From IMG/VR virus record IMGVR_UViG_3300012931_000052, positions 1-36,119 of that record: a DNA stretch of 36,119 bases, one strand, 5' to 3'. This document shows positions 4,776-31,079 of this stretch, piece after piece. A program made the position numbers and the translations under genes. Each line of letters starts with the position of its first letter. Position 1 is the stretch's first letter. The DNA comes from a virus (taxonomy: Duplodnaviria > Caudoviricetes). The notes under the pieces were generated by a model, which searched no databases, had not been told where the DNA came from, and saw only the letters and a program-made list of their open reading frames with translations.

Positions 4776-5513
4776 ATGAAAAAAGCGGTTATCGTTGGGA
4801 TAAATAATTATCCGCAGTATCCCTTGACTGGGTGCGTGAATGATGCTCTGGATTACCAGACGACTTTGTTGGCCAAAGGATTTTCAGTGACTCTAATCAC
4901 AAATTCTCAGGGAACAAAGGCAAACATTCTAAACAACTTACAATATATGGTTAGTAATTCTGTTTCGGGAGATTCTCTAGTATTCGCTTATTCTGGACAT
5001 GGTAGCAAAGTTCCAGACACAAATGGGGATGAACCCGACCAGTATGATGAGGTTTTGTGTCCCATTGACTTCTTCTCAGGTCAGTACATCTCAGATGACG
5101 ATTTGAGGGCAATATTTAGTGGTTTGCCAAGTGGAGTCACTCTGGATGTTTTCTTGGACTCTTGTTATAGTGGAACGGCCACGAGATGCTTGGATCTAGT
5201 TGGCGTAAAGTCGAGGTGCATACCAGGTCCTATAACAAATGGTGCTAAAGCTGCTAGAGTTGTGACCTTGGTCCCTGATTTAAATCATGTGCTGTGGTCC
5301 GGATGTAAAGACAATCAAACCTCCAGTGAGGTCTCGGTTAATGGCGTGGTTCGAGGGGTCTTTAGTTACTATGTTTTGAAGGCAATTAGAATTGGTGGGT
5401 TGAGAGCCTCCTTGATTACTGCCGTTCAGAATGCAGTTGCCAGCAAGGTTGCAAATCAGACCCCCCAACTAGAATGTAGTCAAGCAGAAAGTACCCAGTT
5501 ACCTTTCACTTGA
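4776..5513 (+). CDS. Caspase-family (peptidase C14) metacaspase-like cysteine protease
   Basis: KKAVIVGINNY first strand, LTGCVND, YSGHG (catalytic His), DEPDQYDEVLCPID, DSCYSG (catalytic Cys), SGCKDNQTS and QTPQL; GAGGTG RBS. Confidence 0.93.
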   Translation: MKKAVIVGINNYPQYPLTGCVNDALDYQTTLLAKGFSVTLITNSQGTKANILNNLQYMVSNSVSGDSLVFAYSGHGSKVPDTNGDEPDQYDEVLCPIDFFSGQYISDDDLRAIFSGLPSGVTLDVFLDSCYSGTATRCLDLVGVKSRCIPGPITNGAKAARVVTLVPDLNHVLWSGCKDNQTSSEVSVNGVVRGVFSYYVLKAIRIGGLRASLITAVQNAVASKVANQTPQLECSQAESTQLPFT

Positions 5514-6510: not shown

Positions 6511-6942
6511 TTATCCAACTATCGCCGTTGTGATCGTTCCGACGCCGTTTGTCAAGTACACCTTGGTTCCGATTGGGAGTACCTGATTATTTGGTACAGT
6601 AATGGCGTATTTGAAATAGTTAGGCTGAACCTCGTCGAATCCGTCAGTGGCTTCTGGGTATGGGTTTCCAACCAGGACCTCAGTGTAAGGCAACTTGGCA
6701 ACATCTACTGCCTTGTAAGCACTGTTTCCATTAGATTCCTTGGTAATCAAACGGAATCCGCCAATATCGCGGGGTGCTGTACCCAGATTCATGATTGTGA
6801 TGGACGTAGGTGTTGCCTTCATAACGATGTTCGCGACAGCTGGATCCGGCATCCCATCAGAACTGACATCCTCAGCCATTGCGGTCATCATGCTCAACAT
6901 AGCGATCACAAGGATCGCGCCGAAAGTTCCAATTTTAGACAT
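6511..6942 (-). CDS. Secreted or surface protein with signal peptide
   Basis: MSKIGTFGAILVIAMLSMMTAMA signal peptide; GGAGG RBS; own BRE/TATA near 6995-7010. Confidence 0.65.
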   Translation of the reverse strand: MSKIGTFGAILVIAMLSMMTAMAEDVSSDGMPDPAVANIVMKATPTSITIMNLGTAPRDIGGFRLITKESNGNSAYKAVDVAKLPYTEVLVGNPYPEATDGFDEVQPNYFKYAITVPNNQVLPIGTKVYLTNGVGTITTAIVG

Positions 6943-7539: not shown

Positions 7540-7904
7540 AATTCTGTCCATCTAAAAGTTATCTGTTCTTGCCGACAATTTTCCCCTCGGAAAACAATAG
7601 TCCAAGGCGAGTTGTGTCCCAAACTCCTATATATTCCCTCATACGTGGATTCTGATACGACGCCTTTTCTTCTAGCGATTTCTAGTTTGGCATATATTGA
7701 AATGTGGTCATGGCCTAATGTTCTTGCTAGATGGCCAAGTTCCGATATGAAATAGGATTCATTTCGTTGGCGAGTGACTTCTTCTTGGCGTATCACTGGT
7801 CTATCTACATAATATGTATCCCAACTAGTTGTTACAGTTCCGGACGTATAATAACGCACGCCTTGGATGGGTATATAACCACCTGTAACACCGACTTCGG
7901 GCAT
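7536..7904 (-). CDS. Hypothetical protein
   Basis: 122-aa ORF coupled by a TAATG overlap to the upstream gene. Confidence 0.55.
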   Translation of the reverse strand: MPEVGVTGGYIPIQGVRYYTSGTVTTSWDTYYVDRPVIRQEEVTRQRNESYFISELGHLARTLGHDHISIYAKLEIARRKGVVSESTYEGIYRSLGHNSPWTIVFRGENCRQEQITFRWTEF

Positions 7905-8206
7905 TAGTAGCCACCCACCCGGGAAATATCAGCCATGACAGGCTTGATTGCTGGCTGTGGTTGGGAAGATACTGGCTTCTCTTTTACGATAACTTTTTGT
8001 ATGGGCTTTTCTCTTTCTTTGATTTTCTCCTTTTTGATAGGTGCTTTCTTGGTTTTTTCTTTTTCTTTTATTGCCTGATCACTCACTATTATAGTGTACT
8101 TTGTTTTCTTCTTGGTTATTTCCTTTTTCTGTATGGACTCTACTTGCAGGCGTCCTGCCTGAATTCCTTCTAGTATTATTTGTAGTTCATTATTGTTTTC
8201 TGACAT
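7904..8206 (-). CDS. Lys-rich hypothetical protein
   Basis: AGGAG RBS before the ATG at 8206 (MSENNNELQ); basic low-complexity middle. Confidence 0.55.
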   Translation of the reverse strand: MSENNNELQIILEGIQAGRLQVESIQKKEITKKKTKYTIIVSDQAIKEKEKTKKAPIKKEKIKEREKPIQKVIVKEKPVSSQPQPAIKPVMADISRVGGY

Positions 8207-8628: not shown

Positions 8629-8645
8629 CCAAAAACTATAAATAC
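8629..8645 (+). promoter_or_regulatory. Archaeal-type BRE-TATA promoter of the amidoligase operon
   Basis: CCAAAAAC-TATAAATA, followed by a GGTGA RBS and the ATG at 8678. Confidence 0.6.
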
Positions 8646-8677
8646 TACCAAGCAAAAGTTGAAGTTGGTGATAAAAC

Positions 8678-10282
8678 ATGATGAGAGAAATTAAAGGAAA
8701 GGCACCAAGGGTTTCTGACAAGAGACAAACCGGAAATGCTGACTGCGTACTTGCTCAGTTTGCAGAAAATCTTATTCCGGTCGTGGAGGAGAGCATTCAC
8801 GCAGTCAAGTGTTATGACAGGATTGAGTCTGCTGATAATCTGGCACGAGATACGATATACGTAGATTGTCATGGTACCATTAATGTAATAGTAATGGACC
8901 AATTCAACGTGAACATTCCAGAAGATTTGCCAACGATGCCTGATGGACTTTTCGAACACCTATCAAGACCCATAGAAGAGACTGAACTGTACTTTATGTC
9001 CAATATGACAGTGAGAACAGGCTCATCAGGACTACCGGCAAAAGTCGCAAAGATCAATAATCATGTAGTGGGTTATTACCTTCCAGACCTTAATAGCTGG
9101 GTAACAACCAATTGGACCTGGCACATCCAGTATATGACCGTGGTCTTGGCATATGCTTGGCCAAAGTTCATTGAAGGTTTTGGAATCAGTTTGGGTAATA
9201 ATTCCCTTGCTTCTGAAAAGAAAGGAGAAAAGGTCAAGAAAATAGAGGTCACCATTGGTTGTGATCCCGAGTTTGAGACCCTAAAGAATGGCAAGGTAGT
9301 ACGAGCTGACACCATCATAAATAGAGATAATGCAGTTACACCTACTGCTGAAATCGGGCTCGATGGGCAGCGAGCTCAAGTGGAAGTTCGTCCAAAACCG
9401 TCTAGTAACCCTGGTAAAGTTGTAAAGAATATCAGAGACCTCATGAAGAAGTTTGCAAAGGACTACAGCAGTGTTGACCTTACTGACAAGGGTAATAACT
9501 ATCCATTAGGTGGTCACATTCATGTTGGTATTGGACAGCGAATTGAAGTTGACCGAGAACTTGGTATGATTCTGGATGACTTTATTGGACGGCCTACCAT
9601 AAATTTGAGTGGTAGTGCTAGGGAAGGTTATAAGAGATTGGCTTCCCAGAGTTCTGAGGCGATCCGGTCCCAGCCACATGGATTTGAATATAGGTCTACT
9701 CCGGCTGCGGTCTTCCAGAATCCCCGGATTGCTTATATTGTGTTTAAGCTTGCGAAAAATTTGTCTGAGAAATACTTCAATCAGGAGACTATTAAGTATG
9801 AAGAGAGACCAACCATCCAGAACTACATAGATGTCGGTGGACTCACGGAAAAACAAGCCACATATTTCATGAAGTTTATCGAGGATTATAAGCCAGAAGT
9901 TTCCCTACGATCTGCCTGGAAGGTAGAAGCAGCGCCAGTGGATCTTACCTTTCAAAATAATATTACTGTGGAGTTTCATGATGAATGGGATCCAATTGTA
10001 TCAAGGGCATTGCAGGAAAGCATTCAGGATGCGGTTATGTCGAATAGGCCTGTAGTTGTTTCGTTCTATGGCCTGAACGAGGACCGAGGAACTGATATTT
10101 GTACACTGCCTTGCTCTGGCTTTAATACAATGTTTGATAATATACCAAAACCCTATATGTCATCAGGGAATGTTCTGAATATTGGTGTGTCAAGGAATAG
10201 AAGAATGGACATGGGTAGTGCTAGAGTAAGGACACTGACAGACACCGTGAGAAATGCCGTCACTAACTTAATGGGAGAATAA
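8678..10282 (+). CDS. phiEco32-like COOH-NH2 ligase type 2 (glutamine-synthetase-like amidoligase), paralog 1
   Basis: IGCDPEF, GLDG...VEVRP, LGGHIHVG and QPHGFEYRS motifs. Confidence 0.85.
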   Translation: MMREIKGKAPRVSDKRQTGNADCVLAQFAENLIPVVEESIHAVKCYDRIESADNLARDTIYVDCHGTINVIVMDQFNVNIPEDLPTMPDGLFEHLSRPIEETELYFMSNMTVRTGSSGLPAKVAKINNHVVGYYLPDLNSWVTTNWTWHIQYMTVVLAYAWPKFIEGFGISLGNNSLASEKKGEKVKKIEVTIGCDPEFETLKNGKVVRADTIINRDNAVTPTAEIGLDGQRAQVEVRPKPSSNPGKVVKNIRDLMKKFAKDYSSVDLTDKGNNYPLGGHIHVGIGQRIEVDRELGMILDDFIGRPTINLSGSAREGYKRLASQSSEAIRSQPHGFEYRSTPAAVFQNPRIAYIVFKLAKNLSEKYFNQETIKYEERPTIQNYIDVGGLTEKQATYFMKFIEDYKPEVSLRSAWKVEAAPVDLTFQNNITVEFHDEWDPIVSRALQESIQDAVMSNRPVVVSFYGLNEDRGTDICTLPCSGFNTMFDNIPKPYMSSGNVLNIGVSRNRRMDMGSARVRTLTDTVRNAVTNLMGE

Positions 10283-10284
10283 AC

Positions 10285-11805
10285 ATGAGAAAACAACTGG
10301 TTGGAAAACATCCAACTATTTCTTCGAATAACCATCACTTGATGGAATGTGCTGCCGACATACTTGAGGATGTTAGTCCTTACTTCAATGCATTAAGATC
10401 GCACTATGATGTGACTTGTGGCTTACAAGAAAACGTAATGTATACCTATCCAACAGTGGACTTGCGTATCAAGATAATTGGAGAAATTGATATAACTGGC
10501 GTTAATGTTCATGACACCATGTTTTATGAGCATAGCAGAATGGATTCTCATGTCAGTGATAGATATTCAGAACCAGCTATCAAGATCAACGTAAATGGTT
10601 ACTTTGCTGGGTGGTACCTGCCAAGAATCAATGTGATTTGTGCTGCAGACTGGACACACGGTTCGGGAACAGTGAGTACGTTCAGACAAGTTTGGCCAAA
10701 ATTGATAACTCTCCTGGATTTGAAAATACTACCAGAAGAAAAAAGAATAAAGGAAGAAAAAATCAAGATTGACAAGATCACCATGGGTTGTGATCCGGAG
10801 TTCGAGCTTGTTAATGGGCAAGGCGACGTAATTTATGCCGGCATGCATATAGTTAGTGACGAAGATGGTAATGGTAATAACCTCGGAGTAGATGGCGCAG
10901 ATGATCAAGTAGAGTTGAGGCCCAGAGCAGGTGATCCTAGACAAGTCGTAAGCAACATCAAGAAGTTGTTCAAGATGTTTTCCGAGCAGTACGGTGAGTA
11001 CAAGCTCAGCGACGAAGGTGACGAATATCCATTAGGTGGTCATATTCATGTAGGTATTGGTAGAAGGTGGAGACCTGATAGTGGTTTAGCCCACCTGCTG
11101 GATGACTTTGTAGGTAGGGCCGTAATCAACCTATCAGGCGAAGCACGAGATGACTATAAGAGGCTGGCTTCTCAGTCTTTGGATGCCATCAGGATTCAAC
11201 CACATGGATTTGAATATAGGAGCCCGCCATCAGCAGTTTTCCAGAATCCTGCCATAACGTATATTACATTAACCCTAGTGAAAAACCTCTGTGAAAAGTA
11301 TTTCCAAGAAGTGCCTTTGGAATATGATAGCAGACCTACTCTCGAAGACTATATGAATGTGGGAGGACTTACCAAACAGCAAGCAAAATACTTTATGAAG
11401 TTTATCGAGGAGTATGAACCAACTAAAAATATAACGGCTAATTGGCACATAACACCGAGTAAGTCTTTTGAACCTGCTACAATCACGGTTATCTTCAGTG
11501 ATAAGTGGCATCCACTTGTAAAAGAATGGATCAATAGGTTTATAAAGGAAAAAGTTAAAGTTAGTTTGCCCATAATCATTAAGTTGCATGGCTTAGGAGA
11601 AAGAAGAGGGCGTAACCTATGCACAATACCGACTGGCAGGACAGCCTTAGTGGAGGATATTCCGCATAAGGTCTGGAATGCGTCTACAAGAACATTACAG
11701 ATTGGTCTGTCGTATAATAGGCGTACAATGGATGGATATAATAATTTATTCGGTATTGCATTTGTAAATGCAATTAGTAAGTACATAAAGGAAAACTGCA
11801 GGTGA
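10285..11805 (+). CDS. phiEco32-like COOH-NH2 ligase type 2, paralog 2
   Basis: MGCDPEF, GVDG...VELRP, LGGHIHVG and QPHGFEYRS motifs; aligns by eye with paralog 1 over most of its length. Confidence 0.85.
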   Translation: MRKQLVGKHPTISSNNHHLMECAADILEDVSPYFNALRSHYDVTCGLQENVMYTYPTVDLRIKIIGEIDITGVNVHDTMFYEHSRMDSHVSDRYSEPAIKINVNGYFAGWYLPRINVICAADWTHGSGTVSTFRQVWPKLITLLDLKILPEEKRIKEEKIKIDKITMGCDPEFELVNGQGDVIYAGMHIVSDEDGNGNNLGVDGADDQVELRPRAGDPRQVVSNIKKLFKMFSEQYGEYKLSDEGDEYPLGGHIHVGIGRRWRPDSGLAHLLDDFVGRAVINLSGEARDDYKRLASQSLDAIRIQPHGFEYRSPPSAVFQNPAITYITLTLVKNLCEKYFQEVPLEYDSRPTLEDYMNVGGLTKQQAKYFMKFIEEYEPTKNITANWHITPSKSFEPATITVIFSDKWHPLVKEWINRFIKEKVKVSLPIIIKLHGLGERRGRNLCTIPTGRTALVEDIPHKVWNASTRTLQIGLSYNRRTMDGYNNLFGIAFVNAISKYIKENCR

Positions 11806-11810
11806 AATTA

Positions 11811-12509
11811 ATGTGTATTATAGCGATTTGTAAGGATCGACCGTTAAGTGCTTGGGAAATTCATAACTGCTTCACGAATAATAGTGACGGCGTAGGCTTT
11901 GCCTATGCACGGGGCGATAAGGTCACGATAAATAAGGGTTATATGACCGAGGAAGCATTCGTTAAGGCCTATGAAGACGTGAATATCTTACCACATGTCG
12001 TGCATTTCAGGACAACGACTAGTGGAGGCGTTAGTCAGGAGCTTTGTCATCCATTTGTTGTGGATGAGCATAGCGAACTTGTTGTCCAAGATGAAGTTGA
12101 GCAACCTGTGCTCTTCCATAATGGGGTGATCTTTGATTGGATGACCCTGACTATGAATATGGTCACATCGGGACAAATCGAGATGCCTAAAGGTCCCATG
12201 AACGACACCAGGATGGCTGCAATTATGGTCGCGACTCTAGGCGATGAAGTCCTGAACTTGCTAAGCGGTAAGTTTGTCCTAGTGGATCCATCTGGAGTAA
12301 TTACAAGATGGGGCTCCTTTGAGAATGAACGTGGCATCCTATTCTCAAATGATGGGTATAAGAGAGTAAGTTATGTATATACCAACAAGAACGCGGGTAA
12401 GTGCAAGGGAGGTGTCGGAACGCACAAAGCCTATAATGATTTCCTGGACAAGTATTATGATGAAGATACTCCGAATAGGAGTTTACCAGGTGGAGGAATG
12501 TGTGAATAA
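11811..12509 (+). CDS. Class II (Ntn) glutamine amidotransferase
   Basis: ATG 11811 after GGTGA gives MCIIAIC (N-terminal nucleophile Cys); NSDGVG, HFRTTTSG, CHPF, HNG and DTR motifs. Confidence 0.88.
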   Translation: MCIIAICKDRPLSAWEIHNCFTNNSDGVGFAYARGDKVTINKGYMTEEAFVKAYEDVNILPHVVHFRTTTSGGVSQELCHPFVVDEHSELVVQDEVEQPVLFHNGVIFDWMTLTMNMVTSGQIEMPKGPMNDTRMAAIMVATLGDEVLNLLSGKFVLVDPSGVITRWGSFENERGILFSNDGYKRVSYVYTNKNAGKCKGGVGTHKAYNDFLDKYYDEDTPNRSLPGGGMCE

Positions 12510-12680
12510 AATCAGAACTAAATTTAACCTTTTTTATAGCATGACTTTATATAGTATTAACACTAATAAGAGTATATGTTAGATTTATGGTGTAAGCGGA
12601 CCTGGAAAGCCAGTGGGAGAAGTGTGTCCGGAATGGAGGTGAAGGTGTACTTTAAAAATAATATTTTTAAAAAAAAGTAT

Positions 12681-12980
12681 TTAATCATTTATTACTAATA
12701 ACCTAGTACCACACATATTGCACTTGTAGTGAGTTCCTATTAACTCGCCTTCAACTCGATCTTCGCTTACTTTGGCGAAGTTTCTTACCGTCCCGTGATA
12801 GTTCTTACTACCTTTGAGACAAATTGGACAACATGGTATTTTGCCACCGTTTTGGTGATCAAACATCGACTGTTCTTGTACTAAGTTACCATCCTCATCT
12901 TTATCGAACATCTTCATTACATTTTCACTAATGGAATTTTGCGTGTATAGTTTTGCTAATTGGTTTAAACTTCCTGTCAT
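12681..12980 (-). CDS. Zinc-ribbon protein in an antisense cassette
   Basis: CPIC...CNMC; GAGGTGA RBS and its own promoter. Confidence 0.6.
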   Translation of the reverse strand: MTGSLNQLAKLYTQNSISENVMKMFDKDEDGNLVQEQSMFDHQNGGKIPCCPICLKGSKNYHGTVRNFAKVSEDRVEGELIGTHYKCNMCGTRLLVIND

Positions 12981-12985
12981 ATTAA

Positions 12986-13031
12986 TTCACCTCACTAACT
13001 ACTAGTACTTCTGAGAATATATAACTTACGG
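12986..13031 (-). promoter_or_regulatory. 46-nt promoter/RBS unit, copy 1
   Basis: Ungapped match to 18281..18326 and 31085..31130; on the minus strand reads BRE-TATA-AGTACTA-GAGGTGAA. Confidence 0.75.
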
Positions 13032-13061
13032 TTGAAAATAAGAAAAGTTTCATAAAAAAGT

Positions 13062-13790
13062 TTAAATACAAAGTTCATGGATCTTGCTGACAAGTAAGTC
13101 TACCTTGCGTGGGACTAATCCAGGAGCACTATTGATCTCAAAGATCGTTGACTTGGTTCCGCTTGGTGTTTGGATAGTAGCGCAATCTACGGCAGCAAGA
13201 TCAAGTCCGCACTGGTTGACGGCATCTCTGGCTGCTCTCTTCAAATCAGTAGGAAGTGATGCAACCCGGACCCACCTAAAGAAACAACCTGCCTGATGGT
13301 TTCTGATGAGGATGTTAGGTGTAGGACATTCTTTCAAACTTGCCTCGATGATCCTATCCTTAAGCAAAAACAACCTAAATTCATCGATTTTTTCAACCTT
13401 TTCCTGGATGTAATGTCCTGCTGGATCGAACCTCCTTAGTTCTTGTGGGGTATTTACAACCCAGAAGAACTTACCCTGAAAATGGGTGTTTTTGCGCACG
13501 ATTACAGGAAACTGGATATCACCTTGTAGGGCTTGGTCCCAGGAGATTAATTTAGGCGTCGGGATATTATGCTCCATAAGGAGTTTCTTGCACCTGGGCT
13601 TGTTAGAAGAGGTCCTAACGGCGTCTAGCCGATTAATAATTGCTCCGTCTTCTGGATCAGGTAGAGATGCGTTTCCATAACGTAAGACTATACCTTCCCC
13701 TCTGATACCTTGTTCACTATAGTCGGTTTGTAATGCTCTAGCTAGTGCTCGACCTGTTGGCCTAGCCTTTCTGCAACCTAATACTGTCAC
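13062..13790 (-). CDS. ATP-grasp ligase (RimK/YheC-like)
   Basis: SNK...IPTP, FPVIVRK..H.QGK, YIQEKV...EFR, IRNH, CGLDLAAVD and FEINSAPGL motifs; GTG start after AGGAG. Confidence 0.88.
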   Translation of the reverse strand: MTVLGCRKARPTGRALARALQTDYSEQGIRGEGIVLRYGNASLPDPEDGAIINRLDAVRTSSNKPRCKKLLMEHNIPTPKLISWDQALQGDIQFPVIVRKNTHFQGKFFWVVNTPQELRRFDPAGHYIQEKVEKIDEFRLFLLKDRIIEASLKECPTPNILIRNHQAGCFFRWVRVASLPTDLKRAARDAVNQCGLDLAAVDCATIQTPSGTKSTIFEINSAPGLVPRKVDLLVSKIHELCI

Positions 13791-13814
13791 TTAATTCACT
13801 CCTACTCGTTACTT

Positions 13815-14156
13815 TCATAGATCAACTATAAATGCATTTAGGTTAAACTTTGTTGCTTGTTTGATCATATTCTGAGTTCCCTGACTATTTGGAAATCGGA
13901 ATGCAACTAGAGCATCTGCATATTTTGCCATTTCTCGGTTTCTGATCGGGCCTGCTGATTTACCATATGTGGTCCACTTAGCAGGAAATTTTACTATTGG
14001 GATGGCGTGTTCCAGTGCCCATCTCTCCCCGAGGGTGTCTGCTCCACTAGCACAGCCTGATACAACTGTCGTGATTTGCCAGGGAACATCTAGCATATGG
14101 CGGCAGAGTAACTCATAGTTCGTGAAGTTTCTTGACCCAGCAATAATTGTTATCAT
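13815..14156 (-). CDS. SLOG-superfamily protein (YspA-related/DUF2493)
   Basis: IIAGSRNF, VVSGCASGAD, FPAKW..YGKSAGPIRNREM and SQGTQNMI motifs. Confidence 0.85.
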   Translation of the reverse strand: MITIIAGSRNFTNYELLCRHMLDVPWQITTVVSGCASGADTLGERWALEHAIPIVKFPAKWTTYGKSAGPIRNREMAKYADALVAFRFPNSQGTQNMIKQATKFNLNAFIVDL

Positions 14157-14204
14157 GTTAAGTTAGTTTTAGTTCTGCTTCGATAAATAGTTTTTGGTAA
14201 GCAT

Positions 14205-14240
14205 ATCGTAAAACACCAAGTTTTACCTTCCAATATGATT
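14205..14240 (+). promoter_or_regulatory. Putative late promoter/activator site, copy 1
   Basis: ATCGTAAAACACcaagTTTTACCTTCCAATATGATT, repeated at 19489 and 31140. Confidence 0.7.
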
Positions 14241-15855: not shown

Positions 15856-16536
15856 ATGACAGAACCATATAGAGTTATAATTACAAATGATGTAGATGGC
15901 GATGAATCTCTTGATCTTGAGTTGGGTCCTACCATCGAAGAATTAGTAGTAGAATCAACACCATTCACTGCATCATATGATACAACGGCGTTTTTCCGGG
16001 TGTTGTATAGATTCATTACTGTGCAGAGTCAAGCGGAATTCACTGCTGGAACAAACGAGGACGCTGATATTCCTTGGGAAAATTATGCTGTTTATCAGGT
16101 ATTGTCCGAGGATGAATGGCCACAATTACTTAATTCTAGGTCAATACCCCTCAGTTATGTTTCAGACGCTCAAAAATACATGGCATATTGTCACTTAATT
16201 GCAGATTATTTTGAAAAAGGAAACCCAGATTGGAGCTTCCGGAGCCAGAGTCAGGCACCCGGTGTTAGTTTTAGCAGAGGAGAAGATACTGGACCAAGAC
16301 TCGCATTAAAAGCCATGCTAGATACAATTGAAAATGCTTATAGAAGATCTGTGGTGAGTGGTGGCCGCGGAGCAGCAATTGTTATCAACCAAATCTCGGA
16401 TGCTAGGAAATATCCAAAACGCTGGAAGCGTTCTGGAATTCCTGCATATGATGGTTCTTCCGAGGGCTATGACTCTGAAGACGTTGAGGATATGGGTGTT
16501 GATTATAATAGCCAAAATGAGAATTCTGCTTGGTGA
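15856..16536 (+). CDS. Putative head-tail adaptor
   Basis: Helical AYCHLIAD followed by the S-x-S...GVSFSR hairpin typical of adaptors; position ahead of the neck genes; GGAGG RBS. Confidence 0.45.
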   Translation: MTEPYRVIITNDVDGDESLDLELGPTIEELVVESTPFTASYDTTAFFRVLYRFITVQSQAEFTAGTNEDADIPWENYAVYQVLSEDEWPQLLNSRSIPLSYVSDAQKYMAYCHLIADYFEKGNPDWSFRSQSQAPGVSFSRGEDTGPRLALKAMLDTIENAYRRSVVSGGRGAAIVINQISDARKYPKRWKRSGIPAYDGSSEGYDSEDVEDMGVDYNSQNENSAW

Positions 16537-17396
16537 TTTTTATTTACACTTTTTTAGGTAAACCTGGTAAAATGTACGAGATGAAATTGAACTATAAATG
16601 TGAATTTAATGGCCAGGATAACAAATGCGAAGGACTGAATCCTGACGATTCCTTACGAGGTCTTATAGATAAGTTCCAAAAACTAACTGATAGTGACTCT
16701 TTTTCTGAAAAACAAAGAAAGGAGTTATCTGATAAATTTTCATTGTTGATTTCTTCTGGAAAACTTAGTGAAAAATCTCAAAGGAAGGCAGAAAGATTCT
16801 TAAAAGTAGTCAGTCGTATTGTACCAAATTCAAAACTTGTTACTACTTCTTCAGAGTCTATTAATATTGTTCCTAAAAAGCAACTTAACGAAAATGATTT
16901 ATATAACATTTCTTCTAAGTTATCTTCGTCTGAAAAAAATACACTATATAAATATACTATTCCTGATTCAGATGAAATAGAAACCTCATTTGAATATGTA
17001 AATAAGTATGCAAATAATATTAGTAATGCTCCGTCTGAAACAAAGAAATCAATAAAGGTTATAGACGATATCATGAATAAATCTATTATACCAGATAAAA
17101 TCCTATTATATAAAGGTGTTTCAGATAGTCGAATATCTAACATTTTGAATTCTGGAAATTATAAACCAGATGGTTTTGTGTCTACTTCCATTGATAAACA
17201 AAAGGCATCAGAATTTGGCGAGAAATATATATTAGAATTAAATATTCCTAAAGGAACAAAAGGTGTATTCCTTGGAGATGAAATGAGTAATGCTCCAGAA
17301 GAAAAGGAAGTATTATTAAACAGAGGATATGTATTTAAGGTTGTTTTGACTAAGAAAGACGGAAATAAGACTATAGTATCGATGAATAGGATGTGA
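16530..17396 (+). CDS. VIP2/Alt-like ADP-ribosyltransferase 1
   Basis: YKYT...YVNKY, LYKG (Arg replaced by Lys), FVSTS, IPKG and EKEVLLNRG motifs; start uncertain, possibly ATT 16542. Confidence 0.85.
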   Translation: MVIFIYTFLGKPGKMYEMKLNYKCEFNGQDNKCEGLNPDDSLRGLIDKFQKLTDSDSFSEKQRKELSDKFSLLISSGKLSEKSQRKAERFLKVVSRIVPNSKLVTTSSESINIVPKKQLNENDLYNISSKLSSSEKNTLYKYTIPDSDEIETSFEYVNKYANNISNAPSETKKSIKVIDDIMNKSIIPDKILLYKGVSDSRISNILNSGNYKPDGFVSTSIDKQKASEFGEKYILELNIPKGTKGVFLGDEMSNAPEEKEVLLNRGYVFKVVLTKKDGNKTIVSMNRM

Positions 17397-18035: not shown

Positions 18036-18275
18036 TTAATATTCTTCTTCTCGGTCAATACAGTCATCATATTCTTTCCAAGAATCCAGACCGCATAATT
18101 CGTGCATGTACTTCGCGGCCTGTAGTCCTGTATCGAAGTATTGGCCCGCTACGTAATATTTTCCAGTGCTAGGAGAATATCCAGCCCATAATGAGCCATC
18201 TTCGCCTCTTGGAAGTTCAAAACTGATCACATGGGTCTGTTCAAGTTTCTTTGTCATTTCTTTAATTGATAGCAT
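18036..18275 (-). CDS. Hypothetical protein in an antisense cassette
   Basis: 79 aa; preceded by the 46-nt promoter/RBS unit. Confidence 0.6.
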   Translation of the reverse strand: MLSIKEMTKKLEQTHVISFELPRGEDGSLWAGYSPSTGKYYVAGQYFDTGLQAAKYMHELCGLDSWKEYDDCIDREEEY

Positions 18276-18326: not shown

Positions 18327-18790
18327 TCGTGATAAACATAACTTCTCAAATTGAGCCCATAATCCAATTTATCTTGGATGAGCTGCACCAAGACAGTGAA
18401 CTTGTTACCCTCTGCGACAACCAATTCTATACAGGACTGCTCCGAATCCCGGTTACACTAACTGCACCTCACTATACAAGAGTTGGTATCCTTTATGCAA
18501 GTGATAGTGGAGATGGCTGCTTCTTTACTCAAGTGCGGGACTTTGACAAACTTGATATCTCTATAATCATAACGGTAGTTTGTGGTCTAGGAGAAAATGA
18601 TAACCATTGCAGAAAAGTTATTAATGCCATGAAAACCTTATTTTCAACTCATAGAAAAAAGACCACAGAAACTTATAAAATTTATATTAATAAAATTGAT
18701 TCCAAGGTGGAACCCACTGATCAGGCCAGATGGACCGGAACCATTACAATGAATGTGGAATATTATACAGCAGTACCTGACATTGATTGA
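18323..18790 (+). CDS. Putative tail-terminator-like neck protein
   Basis: Helix-beta-beta-helix-beta pattern ending RWTGTITMNVEY; size and position fit; start codon uncertain. Confidence 0.45.
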   Translation: MVVINITSQIEPIIQFILDELHQDSELVTLCDNQFYTGLLRIPVTLTAPHYTRVGILYASDSGDGCFFTQVRDFDKLDISIIITVVCGLGENDNHCRKVINAMKTLFSTHRKKTTETYKIYINKIDSKVEPTDQARWTGTITMNVEYYTAVPDID

Positions 18791-19116
18791 GTGGACTTCC
18801 ACTCTTGGAATTCTTGGTCTGAAGAGAATTCTATTATGCATGAGCAACCTCTATATGCACGTTCATCTGTTATGTATCTAAGGCAGGCATCTATGGCATA
18901 CTGTAGGTCCTTCGATCTAAAGGATCGGAATCGACGTCCGCCTTCGCGCTCAAAAGTCCAAACATCATCGGTATTATATTTAATAGTCTTATAATATTTT
19001 ATACCATGAACAGATACATAATCATCTACCTCATCCCAGTTGATTATCAGGATGTATGTTTTTCTAGGATCTAGGATGTTTAAAGTACCATCTGAATTTA
19101 ATGTGATTGTTTTCAT
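18763..19116 (-). CDS. Hypothetical protein, tandem paralog B
   Basis: TLNSDGTLNI, NW, KYY, EREGG and DLQY motifs shared with 19113..19442. Confidence 0.7.
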   Translation of the reverse strand: MKTITLNSDGTLNILDPRKTYILIINWDEVDDYVSVHGIKYYKTIKYNTDDVWTFEREGGRRFRSFRSKDLQYAIDACLRYITDERAYRGCSCIIEFSSDQEFQEWKSTQSMSGTAV

Positions 19117-19442
19117 ATCAGGTTCCTTTCTTTGGCGTTTTCGAATTCTTCTTTCGACTCAAATTCAAAGATCTTCATTAAGTCATATGCATGATTTGTG
19201 CTGTCTTGATACCTTCTTAGATTTTCACTCAGGCAGTACTGTAGGTCCTCTTTTTCTAGTCCAAACCAACCTCCTTCGCGTTCTAGTCGGAAATATCCAT
19301 CGGATTTGACTGGAAAGTAGTATTTTTTTCCACTGAGTCTTACCCATGATCGTTCTTTTATCCAATTGACAACTAAGACAAAGAACCTATCTGGATTGAC
19401 TATGTTCATACTACCATCTGGGTTGAGTGTTAACTCTTTCAT
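19113..19442 (-). CDS. Hypothetical protein, tandem paralog A
   Basis: TLNPDGSMNI, NW, KYY, EREGG and DLQY motifs; TATA about 25 nt upstream, so probably leaderless. Confidence 0.7.
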   Translation of the reverse strand: MKELTLNPDGSMNIVNPDRFFVLVVNWIKERSWVRLSGKKYYFPVKSDGYFRLEREGGWFGLEKEDLQYCLSENLRRYQDSTNHAYDLMKIFEFESKEEFENAKERNLI

Positions 19443-26437: not shown

Positions 26438-27145
26438 GTGAATGTATTGTATAAATTCATTGGTAAGCCTGGCCAAGTATATGAATTAAAGTTTAATTAT
26501 AAATGCGAATTTAATGGCACCGATAATAAATGTAACTTAGAACAAGGCACTGAAGATATAATAAAAGGTAAATACAAAGAACGACCTTCTGAGAAACAAA
26601 TATCCCAAGCAAATAAACAATCCATTAGTATTTTTGATAAATCAAGTGAAGAGGAAATACAAGCAATAGATGATCTTACCGCAGAAAGCGATCCAATCAA
26701 TGAATATATATATTCAAATGATAAAGAAAGTGATTTTGATGAGCATCAAATAGAACGTATAAGAGAAAAAATTTTTCTTATAGATAACGTGATGAAAAAA
26801 GCAAAATTACCTTCTGATATGACTGTTTTCCGGGGTGTAAGTGAAAAAGAATTTAATATAATTTCTAAACAAGGAGATAAGGAATCATTTACGATGCGTG
26901 GCTACAAAAGCACCACAATTGACCAAGACGTTGCGGAAGCATTTAGTGAATCCGATACAAAAGGAAAGAATTTATTCTGTAAAATACATGCACCAAAAGG
27001 TTCAGAAGTTCTGGCAATAACACCTGAATGGAGTAGAAGTAGGGGTGAATCTGAGTTCCTTATAAATCGTGGTACTTCATATAAAATAAATAAAATAGAA
27101 GAAACCGATAGTGCCAGAATAATAGATATAACTATCTTAGGATAA
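26438..27145 (+). CDS. VIP2/Alt-like ADP-ribosyltransferase 2
   Basis: INEY, VFRG, YKSTT, APKG and ESEFLINRG (R-S-ExE) motifs; probable start TTG 26447. Confidence 0.88.
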   Translation: MNVLYKFIGKPGQVYELKFNYKCEFNGTDNKCNLEQGTEDIIKGKYKERPSEKQISQANKQSISIFDKSSEEEIQAIDDLTAESDPINEYIYSNDKESDFDEHQIERIREKIFLIDNVMKKAKLPSDMTVFRGVSEKEFNIISKQGDKESFTMRGYKSTTIDQDVAEAFSESDTKGKNLFCKIHAPKGSEVLAITPEWSRSRGESEFLINRGTSYKINKIEETDSARIIDITILG

Positions 27146-30161: not shown

Positions 30162-30884
30162 ATGCTTTCGGTTGGCCAAAGAGTCCGAATTCTGGCGGCT
30201 GTGCCTACTGATTTGGGTGGTTATACTGTCAAAAAACTTCGTCGTGACCGTCTTTTGAACGACGACAATACCTTCCCCTCGATGCGGATTGCGATAATTT
30301 CACAGGGCATAAGAGCACGTCCGTCCACAGGAGGTCCAATTCGCAAAAATTATGACGGTTATCAAGGCGACGCGCAAGAATGGCTAGGACACCATCAGAA
30401 AGCCACCATAAGTGTAACCGTCATGTGCGAAAGTGAGACACCAGGAACTGACCAAGACACCCCAGAAGTTCTTGATACCCTAATGTACGACCTAGAACAA
30501 GAAATTGAGATCTGGAGACTTGGTATTTATTGGCCTAACGACTATATGAAAGTAGTACCAGGAAGTTCCCGGGTGACTTACCTACCAAATTATATGGCCA
30601 AAGGCGCAGACGAGCATTGGATTTATCTTGCAAATCTTGATTTCCAAATTGAGTATGAATTCAGTGCCTTGGACCCCACCCCTAATATTCATGCCATTGA
30701 ATTTGATTGGGGAATACCGTTACCTGCCACTGACCATATCATCCTCACGGATGTTCATCCTCCTTGGTACGAAATGGATGTCAACATAAGAGGTTGGAAG
30801 TCAGACCTACTTATCGATATGGTTTTGCAAGGTGGTTATCAAGAAAAAAGTGCTAGTTTGGATGTTATTTTAGTAAATGAATAA
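30162..30884 (+). CDS. Putative tail/sheath terminator protein
   Basis: FPSMRI...ATISVTV...DFQIEY pattern; position upstream of the sheath gene. Confidence 0.5.
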   Translation: MLSVGQRVRILAAVPTDLGGYTVKKLRRDRLLNDDNTFPSMRIAIISQGIRARPSTGGPIRKNYDGYQGDAQEWLGHHQKATISVTVMCESETPGTDQDTPEVLDTLMYDLEQEIEIWRLGIYWPNDYMKVVPGSSRVTYLPNYMAKGADEHWIYLANLDFQIEYEFSALDPTPNIHAIEFDWGIPLPATDHIILTDVHPPWYEMDVNIRGWKSDLLIDMVLQGGYQEKSASLDVILVNE

Positions 30885-30896
30885 AAAAAATAATTT

Positions 30897-31079
30897 TTAT
30901 TTTGCCCAAGACGGCAATACACAAGGTTCTACTATAACATCTTTTAATTCCTTTTCTGTGATTTCTTGCCCGTTCCTGAGAAATGGTGTATAATTTCCAA
31001 GAATAATATTCTTTTCTTCTATTTTTAAAAAATATACACCACACATCAAGCCAGATCTTATTCTTTTGCATTCAGACAT
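30897..31079 (-). CDS. Small hypothetical protein in an antisense cassette
   Basis: 60 aa; preceded by the 46-nt promoter/RBS unit. Confidence 0.6.
   Translation of the reverse strand: MSECKRIRSGLMCGVYFLKIEEKNIILGNYTPFLRNGQEITEKELKDVIVEPCVLPSWAK

Follow-up and report, generated by a model that had tools for sequence, protein, structure and literature searches.

What do amidoligase cassettes of the type carried by phage phiEco32 act on? A role in peptidoglycan modification has reportedly been predicted for them since 2009, and the question is raised again by a DNA fragment of 36,119 nt from the structural region of a contractile-tailed virus (IMG/VR record IMGVR_UViG_3300012931_000052; the whole stretch is hereafter called the window). 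In the window, two COOH-NH2 ligases and a class II glutamine amidotransferase (GATase) on the plus strand face an ATP-grasp ligase on the minus strand. Our answer is a tentative one, to which we give a probability of about 0.4: early in infection, this four-enzyme module would modify a protein or peptide inside the cell by forming glutamate-type amide bonds on it. An acceptor of this kind is suggested by three features taken together, namely a peptidase partner, an adaptor-like domain on the ligases and the spread of the system across bacteria and archaea.

A convergent module with a conserved core

The plus-strand unit consists of ligase paralog A (8678-10282; 534 aa), ligase paralog B, which is of the ancestral type (10285-11805; 506 aa), and a stand-alone class II N-terminal nucleophile (Ntn) domain (11811-12509; 232 aa) that is either a GATase or a gamma-glutamyl-amide hydrolase. 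The two ligases score 68.1 and 53.2 bits, respectively, with the PF14395 model (cut-off 25), and the third protein matches PurF and GFAT profiles. The convergent minus-strand unit carries a RimK-like ATP-grasp ligase of phage-module type (13062-13790; phrog_2599, E 2e-17). Open reading frames (ORFs), Pfam and family profiles agree with the gene calls and enzyme families of the initial annotation, which had however overlooked a 99-aa zinc-ribbon ORF, an N-terminal domain of the ligases and an ancestral mini-zincin partner, all described below.

Conservation was assessed in 130 loci gathered with a 44-sequence ligase alignment; counts are given after dereplication and include the window in its own virus family. 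Within this family, the GATase is present in 8/8 and a mini-zincin in 5/8 loci with at least 1.5 kb of downstream sequence, and a convergent ATP-grasp gene is found in all six loci that extend at least 3.5 kb to either side. Thus, both the co-occurrence of the genes and the convergent two-unit layout proposed from the window alone are borne out by its relatives. Outside the family, the GATase accompanies the ligase in 42 of 51 loci and the zincin in 34 of 51, whereas the ATP-grasp gene does so in 5 of 27. This rarity of the ATP-grasp gene suggests that the ancestral core was made up of ligase, GATase and zincin, a combination that also occurs in the Bacillota isolate Desulfovirgula thermocuniculi, where it adjoins a conjugative TcpC gene. 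The mini-zincin is a protein of ~100 aa with an HExxH motif that is encoded directly after the GATase (SprT-like, E 5e-4, for one member), and as a partner it points to a peptide bond. It is absent from the window, which has lost it.

Two other genes of the region are passengers. The SLOG gene of the YAcAr family (13815-14156, minus strand; PF10686 46 bits, E 4e-12) had been counted as part of the system, but it was found in 0 of the other 129 loci, being kept only in a ~90%-identical relative, and its slot, the first of the ATP-grasp unit, is either empty or occupied by other small genes in relatives. It was therefore rejected as a module member and is regarded as a lineage-specific passenger; record G002 has a single weak YAcAr match, below the cut-off, ~60 kb from the module. 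The 99-aa zinc-ribbon ORF (12681-12980, minus strand), situated between the two units with its own TATA at 13017-13024, is confined to the window and its own copy, its place being taken by other genes in relatives. A role as a LysW-like carrier was dismissed since the ORF is not conserved and lacks an acidic tail, and the LysW profile matched in 0/5 relatives. A gamma-glutamylcyclotransferase (GGCT, PF06094) was found neither in the window, which is a fragment, nor in any of five close relatives (40-90% complete), in agreement with the initial annotation, and in 1/25 records overall, a distant one. Amidoligase_2 (PF12224) was likewise absent from the window and was recovered from 0/5 of these relative records. 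A single-protein locus search gave no match. Directly 5′ of one related ligase lies an Acb2/Tad1-like anti-defence gene (L021:9510-9809, plus strand), a single case.

A motif scan placed archaeal-type promoters, made up of a transcription factor B recognition element (BRE) and a TATA box, before the ligase-ligase-GATase unit (8629..8643, plus strand) and the SLOG-ATP-grasp unit (14183..14197, minus strand). The motif, CCAAAAAC-TAT(A/T)(A/T)AT at 8629+ and 14197-, occurs seven times in the window compared with 0.27 times in shuffled sequences, an excess that is partly circular as the motif was derived from these sites. It was also recognized by eye 35-45 nt 5′ of the first ligase gene in 16/16 relatives with upstream DNA (18 were compared, several of them near-identical, and two are truncated), and directly 5′ of the ATP-grasp gene in six loci (L001, L004, L009, L062, L077 and L095), so that the proposal of archaeal promoters at both units is upheld. 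Divergent from the first ligase (ligase A in the window) in every locus map drawn, across a back-to-back promoter region, is a small conserved gene (7904..8206, minus strand; cluster c4, 26 loci) whose product has a globular N-part, a Lys/Pro linker and a conserved PP..A.I tail; this gene is possibly co-regulated with the ligase unit. No Rfam structured RNA matched the window, including the 12510-12680 gap, of which the first 92 nt only are conserved, in L001 alone. In RNA run X1, the 7-kb module region had 5 short contigs and 20 kb of other sequence had 15, that is, 0.71 and 0.75 contigs per kb, and transcription of the module is not demonstrated by these figures.

Long-form ligases and their duplication

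The ExE, E, H, R and ExR residues of the curved beta-sheet core of the GS/GCS COOH-NH2 ligase superfamily have metal- and ATP-binding roles, and all are found in the core of the window ligases. Beyond this core (~160-390 in paralog B), the ligases have a C-terminal part (396-506 in paralog B, an alpha/beta domain in paralog A) and a predicted N-terminal domain, which we call DWTH (~20-150 in paralog B; in paralog A a type-A version with NWTWH at 145). By their sequences they thus represent a long form with an additional, unclassified domain that would be new here. The DWTH domain gave no match above noise in Pfam, PDB sequences, Foldseek, Atlas or VIA, which is not proof of a new fold. It stands alone in record G002 (E 1.5e-13) and is fused to other enzymes in four proteins (P0369, P0378, P0391 and P0392). 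These four combine DWTH with an apparent ATP-grasp plus a swivelling-His kinase and/or an unclassified 'GEARH...YGG..W' domain, with no Pfam match. None of the fused longer ligases (967-2760 aa) scored, a weak negative as a 1036-aa form exists in locus L039; ligase B had no tblastn match among annotated phages.

Paralogs A and B are 44% identical over 394 columns, and the catalytic columns are the same in 8 type-A and 20 type-B rows of the 44-sequence alignment, as classed by a motif sort. In a tree of 98 ligase cores, based on a quick search only, all 19 ligases of the virus family group together as a single clade (SH-aLRT 99) that is nested within mobile-element ligases and far from both phiEco32 gp86 and the Bacillota chromosomal forms. 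This indicates that the duplication arose inside the virus family. Type A is a single clade in the N-domain tree (99) as well as in the core tree (86), so that a concerted evolution of the paralog cores, hinted at by one grouping in the tree of 98 cores, is not upheld. The type-A stem measures 0.57 in the N-domain tree versus 0.071 in the core tree, when median tip lengths differ ~2.3-fold only (0.39 versus 0.17). Change after the duplication thus appears to have taken place mainly in the N-terminal domain of paralog A. (Both trees include P0016, the representative of the 90% cluster, in place of window ligase A; P0044, which has no anchor motif, was excluded.) The L076/L077 lineage has type A only.

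These observations bear on whether the product could be a small molecule instead, that is, a gamma-glutamyl or amidated metabolite or oligopeptide acting as a decoy, signal, superinfection blocker or osmolyte. The initial annotation had also allowed for a small metabolite, yet the shuffling of the N-terminal domain and the asymmetric divergence of the paralogs are easier to understand with a macromolecular target, and the module has no conserved transporter or tailoring gene next to it. We therefore regard a metabolite as somewhat unlikely.

The GATase and ATP-grasp enzymes

Ntn domains of this class either release ammonia or hydrolyse gamma-glutamyl bonds. The window GATase matches Pfam GATase_6 weakly (E 5e-4), and its family profile matches PurF (E 1e-6). 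The start codon is most likely the ATG-TGT at 11811, behind a GGTGA site (alternative, 11802), which would give the enzyme an N-terminal Cys. Among 50 sequences, C2, H65, R67, N104 and G105 are invariant and D132 nearly so, a set compatible with an ammonia donor or an EgtC/DUG3-type hydrolase (PDB matches: PurF, E 1e-6; 1te5, E 0.025). A predicted complex of ligase B and GATase scored 0.01, which speaks neither for nor against contact.

The ATP-grasp enzyme has a weak Pfam RimK match (E 4e-4) and a stronger one with its family profile (E 1e-16); D202, E218, N220 and R139 are invariant. Sequence alignments thus confirm the catalytic motifs as intact in the ligases, the GATase and the ATP-grasp enzyme. 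The best NCBIfam model for the ATP-grasp enzyme is MptN (E 3e-8), CofF scores too, and the gene is fixed in the archaeal family and rare elsewhere, all of which would suit a glutamylation of methanogen cofactors (F420, tetrahydrosarcinapterin or methanofuran) that retunes host metabolism, as had been suggested initially. Against this, the scores reach about a tenth of the cut-offs (MptN 33/350, CofF 18.8/300) and the RimK family model also stays below its own (29.1/143.4), whereas the family profile matches phiEco32 gp80 with 102 bits. Its homologs are phage-module enzymes: 57 phage records matched, and the 15 listed are all phages of bacteria or unassigned. Moreover, the ligase-GATase core is also present in bacterial mobile elements. 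Methanogen cofactors are therefore highly improbable as targets.

Comparison with known systems

The amidoligase cassette of phages phiEco32, LUZ24 and RIO-1 was reportedly described by Iyer et al. in 2009. The window module shares with it a PF14395 ligase, a class II GATase and a RimK-like ATP-grasp enzyme, and by its protein families it appears to be a variant of the phiEco32 cassette. The family profiles score 28.5 bits with gp86, 14.2 with gp83 and 102 with gp80. The differences are considerable: two long-form paralogs of 506-534 aa with extra N- and C-terminal domains replace a 268-aa ligase, the GATase is a short stand-alone protein of 232 aa instead of 676 aa, and the ATP-grasp gene is convergent in the window and its family where phiEco32 has one co-directional run. 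Amidoligase_2 and GGCT are missing, a mini-zincin is the ancestral partner, and the host system is that of an archaeal, myovirus-type virus. That is, the assignment to the phiEco32 type holds for PF14395, the class II GATase and the gp80-type ATP-grasp enzyme but not for Amidoligase_2, GGCT and gene order, and the ligase phylogeny places gp86 far away from the window ligases.

The phiEco32-type set has been called a 'peptidoglycan modification cassette' (PMC5498523) and is also treated in PMC10580990 and PMC3890496, as far as the parts available of these papers go. The classic idea for phiEco32 and RIO-1, an envelope modification against superinfection, would here mean that S-layer protein, glycan or lipid-linked wall precursors are amidated or glutamylated before export, which we consider quite improbable. 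Archaeal viruses with these enzyme classes are on record. Vyasavirus, a Poseidoniales virus, has an amidoligase and a GATase (PMC11706807), so that an occurrence in an archaeal virus is not new, and the nanohaloarchaeal virus DNTV-1 encodes a CAT ligase, an ATP-grasp enzyme, a stand-alone glutaminase domain and GGCT (bioRxiv 10.1101/2025.02.15.638363). For both, the function is hypothesised only. These are other viruses with other hosts, and in the portions of the two reports consulted the genes are listed as separate auxiliary genes, with no description of a long-form duplicated ligase or a convergent layout. Among the papers searched, none that reports the cassette product or the window virus family was found, although papers on methanogen viruses in subscription journals may describe the family.

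Among cellular systems, PafA/Dop pupylation and RimK glutamylation are comparable, but the window module has no Pup-like tag, proteasome genes or known acceptor, and it does have a GATase partner. Chromosomal PF14395, YheC/D and CotE loci of Bacillota also have PF14395 beside ATP-grasp genes (L044 and L053); they form a separate clade, however, without a GATase or zincin neighbour and in a spore-coat context.

A further possibility is nucleobase modification: the enzymes might, for example, stand in for QueC by amidating 7-carboxy-7-deazaguanine, or viral DNA might be hypermodified with amino acids. Two distant phage records (L016:7666-15811 and L017:2859-5110) encode QueD, QueE-like and, by eye, FolE-like proteins near a ligase-GATase pair, with no QueC found there, and this pair might amidate 7-carboxy-7-deazaguanine; record G002 has a QueE-like gene. 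Amidoligases and amidotransferases are also stated to co-occur with thymidine hypermodification genes in the accessible part of PMC8989533. However, L016 and L017, which have replication genes in common, probably represent a single lineage, the QueE-like gene of G002 is ~70 kb from the module, and QueD (3/25 records), QueC (1/25) and TGT (0/25) are rare or absent, none of the three occurring in the window's family. A zincin and a RimK-like enzyme also suit peptides better, and we consider this reading very unlikely.

The virus and its host

The window derives, judging from its genes, from a large tailed virus of myovirus type, whose relatives have genomes of at least 126 kb. Of 50,697 phage records, only that of the archaeal virus ANMV-1 matched its capsid protein, and the family appears to be undescribed in the GenBank phage set searched. 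The relatives encode aRF1 (TIGR03676, 288 bits versus a cut-off of 235), whose named cellular homologs are all archaeal among the matches listed, as well as an archaeal dUTPase (above cut-off), a replication factor C (RFC) small subunit, an ERCC4 nuclease and PolB. Archaeal promoters, archaeal-type genes and a head-tail module, which mark an archaeal tailed virus, are all present, and the archaeal host proposed initially finds support in aRF1, dUTPase, RFC, the BRE/TATA promoters and the ANMV-1-like capsid protein. The host is thus very likely an archaeon. Some family members, including L034, bear bacterial labels as metagenome-assembled genomes, which we read as mis-binning in view of the archaeal genes and promoters.

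A methanogen without pseudomurein is the probable host. The best model for the relatives' thymidylate synthase is of methanogen type, and neither a pseudomurein peptidase nor a pseudomurein-binding repeat turned up in any of the five relatives searched. Weak pointers to a methanogen are the best terminase match, in a Methanomicrobiales virus, a transposase cluster with one Methanothrix-labelled member amid mixed labels, and the presence of the family in wetland and wastewater runs. The aRF1 encoded at L141:11440-12351 (minus strand; record G001) has ~20 homologs of 52-85% identity compared with 33-42% for cellular ones, which suggests a viral aRF1 clade set apart from the cellular proteins.

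Proposed mechanism

In PF14395-type ligases, ATP phosphorylates the gamma-carboxyl of glutamate and the acyl-phosphate is then attacked by an amine; in GatCAB/GatDE-type pairs, a GATase provides its ligase partner with ammonia from glutamine, and RimK-type enzymes add glutamate at a C-terminus. On the intracellular protein or peptide reading, each window ligase would, by family chemistry, phosphorylate a gamma-carboxyl for attack by an amine, and the GATase would most likely supply ammonia from glutamine, or else remove gamma-glutamyl amides. Free glutamate as acceptor would result in a futile cycle, so that bound glutamate is likelier. The ATP-grasp enzyme, which the virus family probably gained from the pool of phage modules, would add a C-terminal glutamate, thereby supplying or extending the acceptor. 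The DWTH domain would likely select the target, the duplication having given two specificities on one chemistry, and the ancestral mini-zincin, lost in the window, may have trimmed or reversed the tag. As the family ligases are nested among mobile-element ligases, including that of Desulfovirgula, the target is probably common to bacteria and archaea. Such a tag would probably serve host takeover, counter-defence or superinfection exclusion.

Other features of the window

Two ADP-ribosyltransferase genes lie among the structural genes (16530-17396 and 26438-27145), and the related loci L133 and L148 have several more, among them MuF fusions 1367 and 2580 aa long. A metacaspase gene (Peptidase_C14; 4776-5513, plus strand; cluster in 8 loci) is located amid small membrane-protein genes in a lysis-like region. 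Small minus-strand cassettes are embedded in the structural region (18036-18275, 18763-19442, 30865-31071 and 6511-6942), at least three with their own BRE/TATA-like promoter; the 143-aa product of 6511-6942 resembles archaeal lamin-tail-domain proteins (score 0.80, a lead only). A dyad motif, CGTAAAAC-N6-TTTTACC-x-TCCAATATGATTA, at 14207, 19491 and 31142 (plus strand) precedes plus-strand structural genes and lies back-to-back with BRE/TATA promoters of the minus strand (14197 and 31130). It also occurs in L142 and L143 and in three copies in record G001, and is a candidate viral late promoter or operator.

Significance

The findings speak for a protein or peptide inside the cell as acceptor, more than for peptidoglycan or the cofactors of methanogens. 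The compact, conserved four-gene form in an archaeal virus, with a core shared with bacterial mobile elements, suggests, at least for this subfamily, a target common to both domains of life. While the concept of such a cassette was already known, the long form with its N-terminal domain, the duplication within the family and the core of ligase, GATase and mini-zincin are new. The module offers a minimal system for reconstitution in which two paralogs that differ in their N-domains but not in their active site can be compared, with the stand-alone N-domain as a natural bait. A more specific proposal, which we put forward as speculative and rather unlikely, is that the long-form ligases glutamylate or amidate proteins in a target-directed manner. 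Their N-domain, which phages also join to kinase-like enzymes or make by itself, would choose a host protein that is conserved across bacteria and archaea, with ligase, GATase, zincin and ATP-grasp enzyme acting as a viral write-and-erase system of post-translational modification. If true, this would solve the question of the phiEco32 cassette, which would then not be about peptidoglycan.

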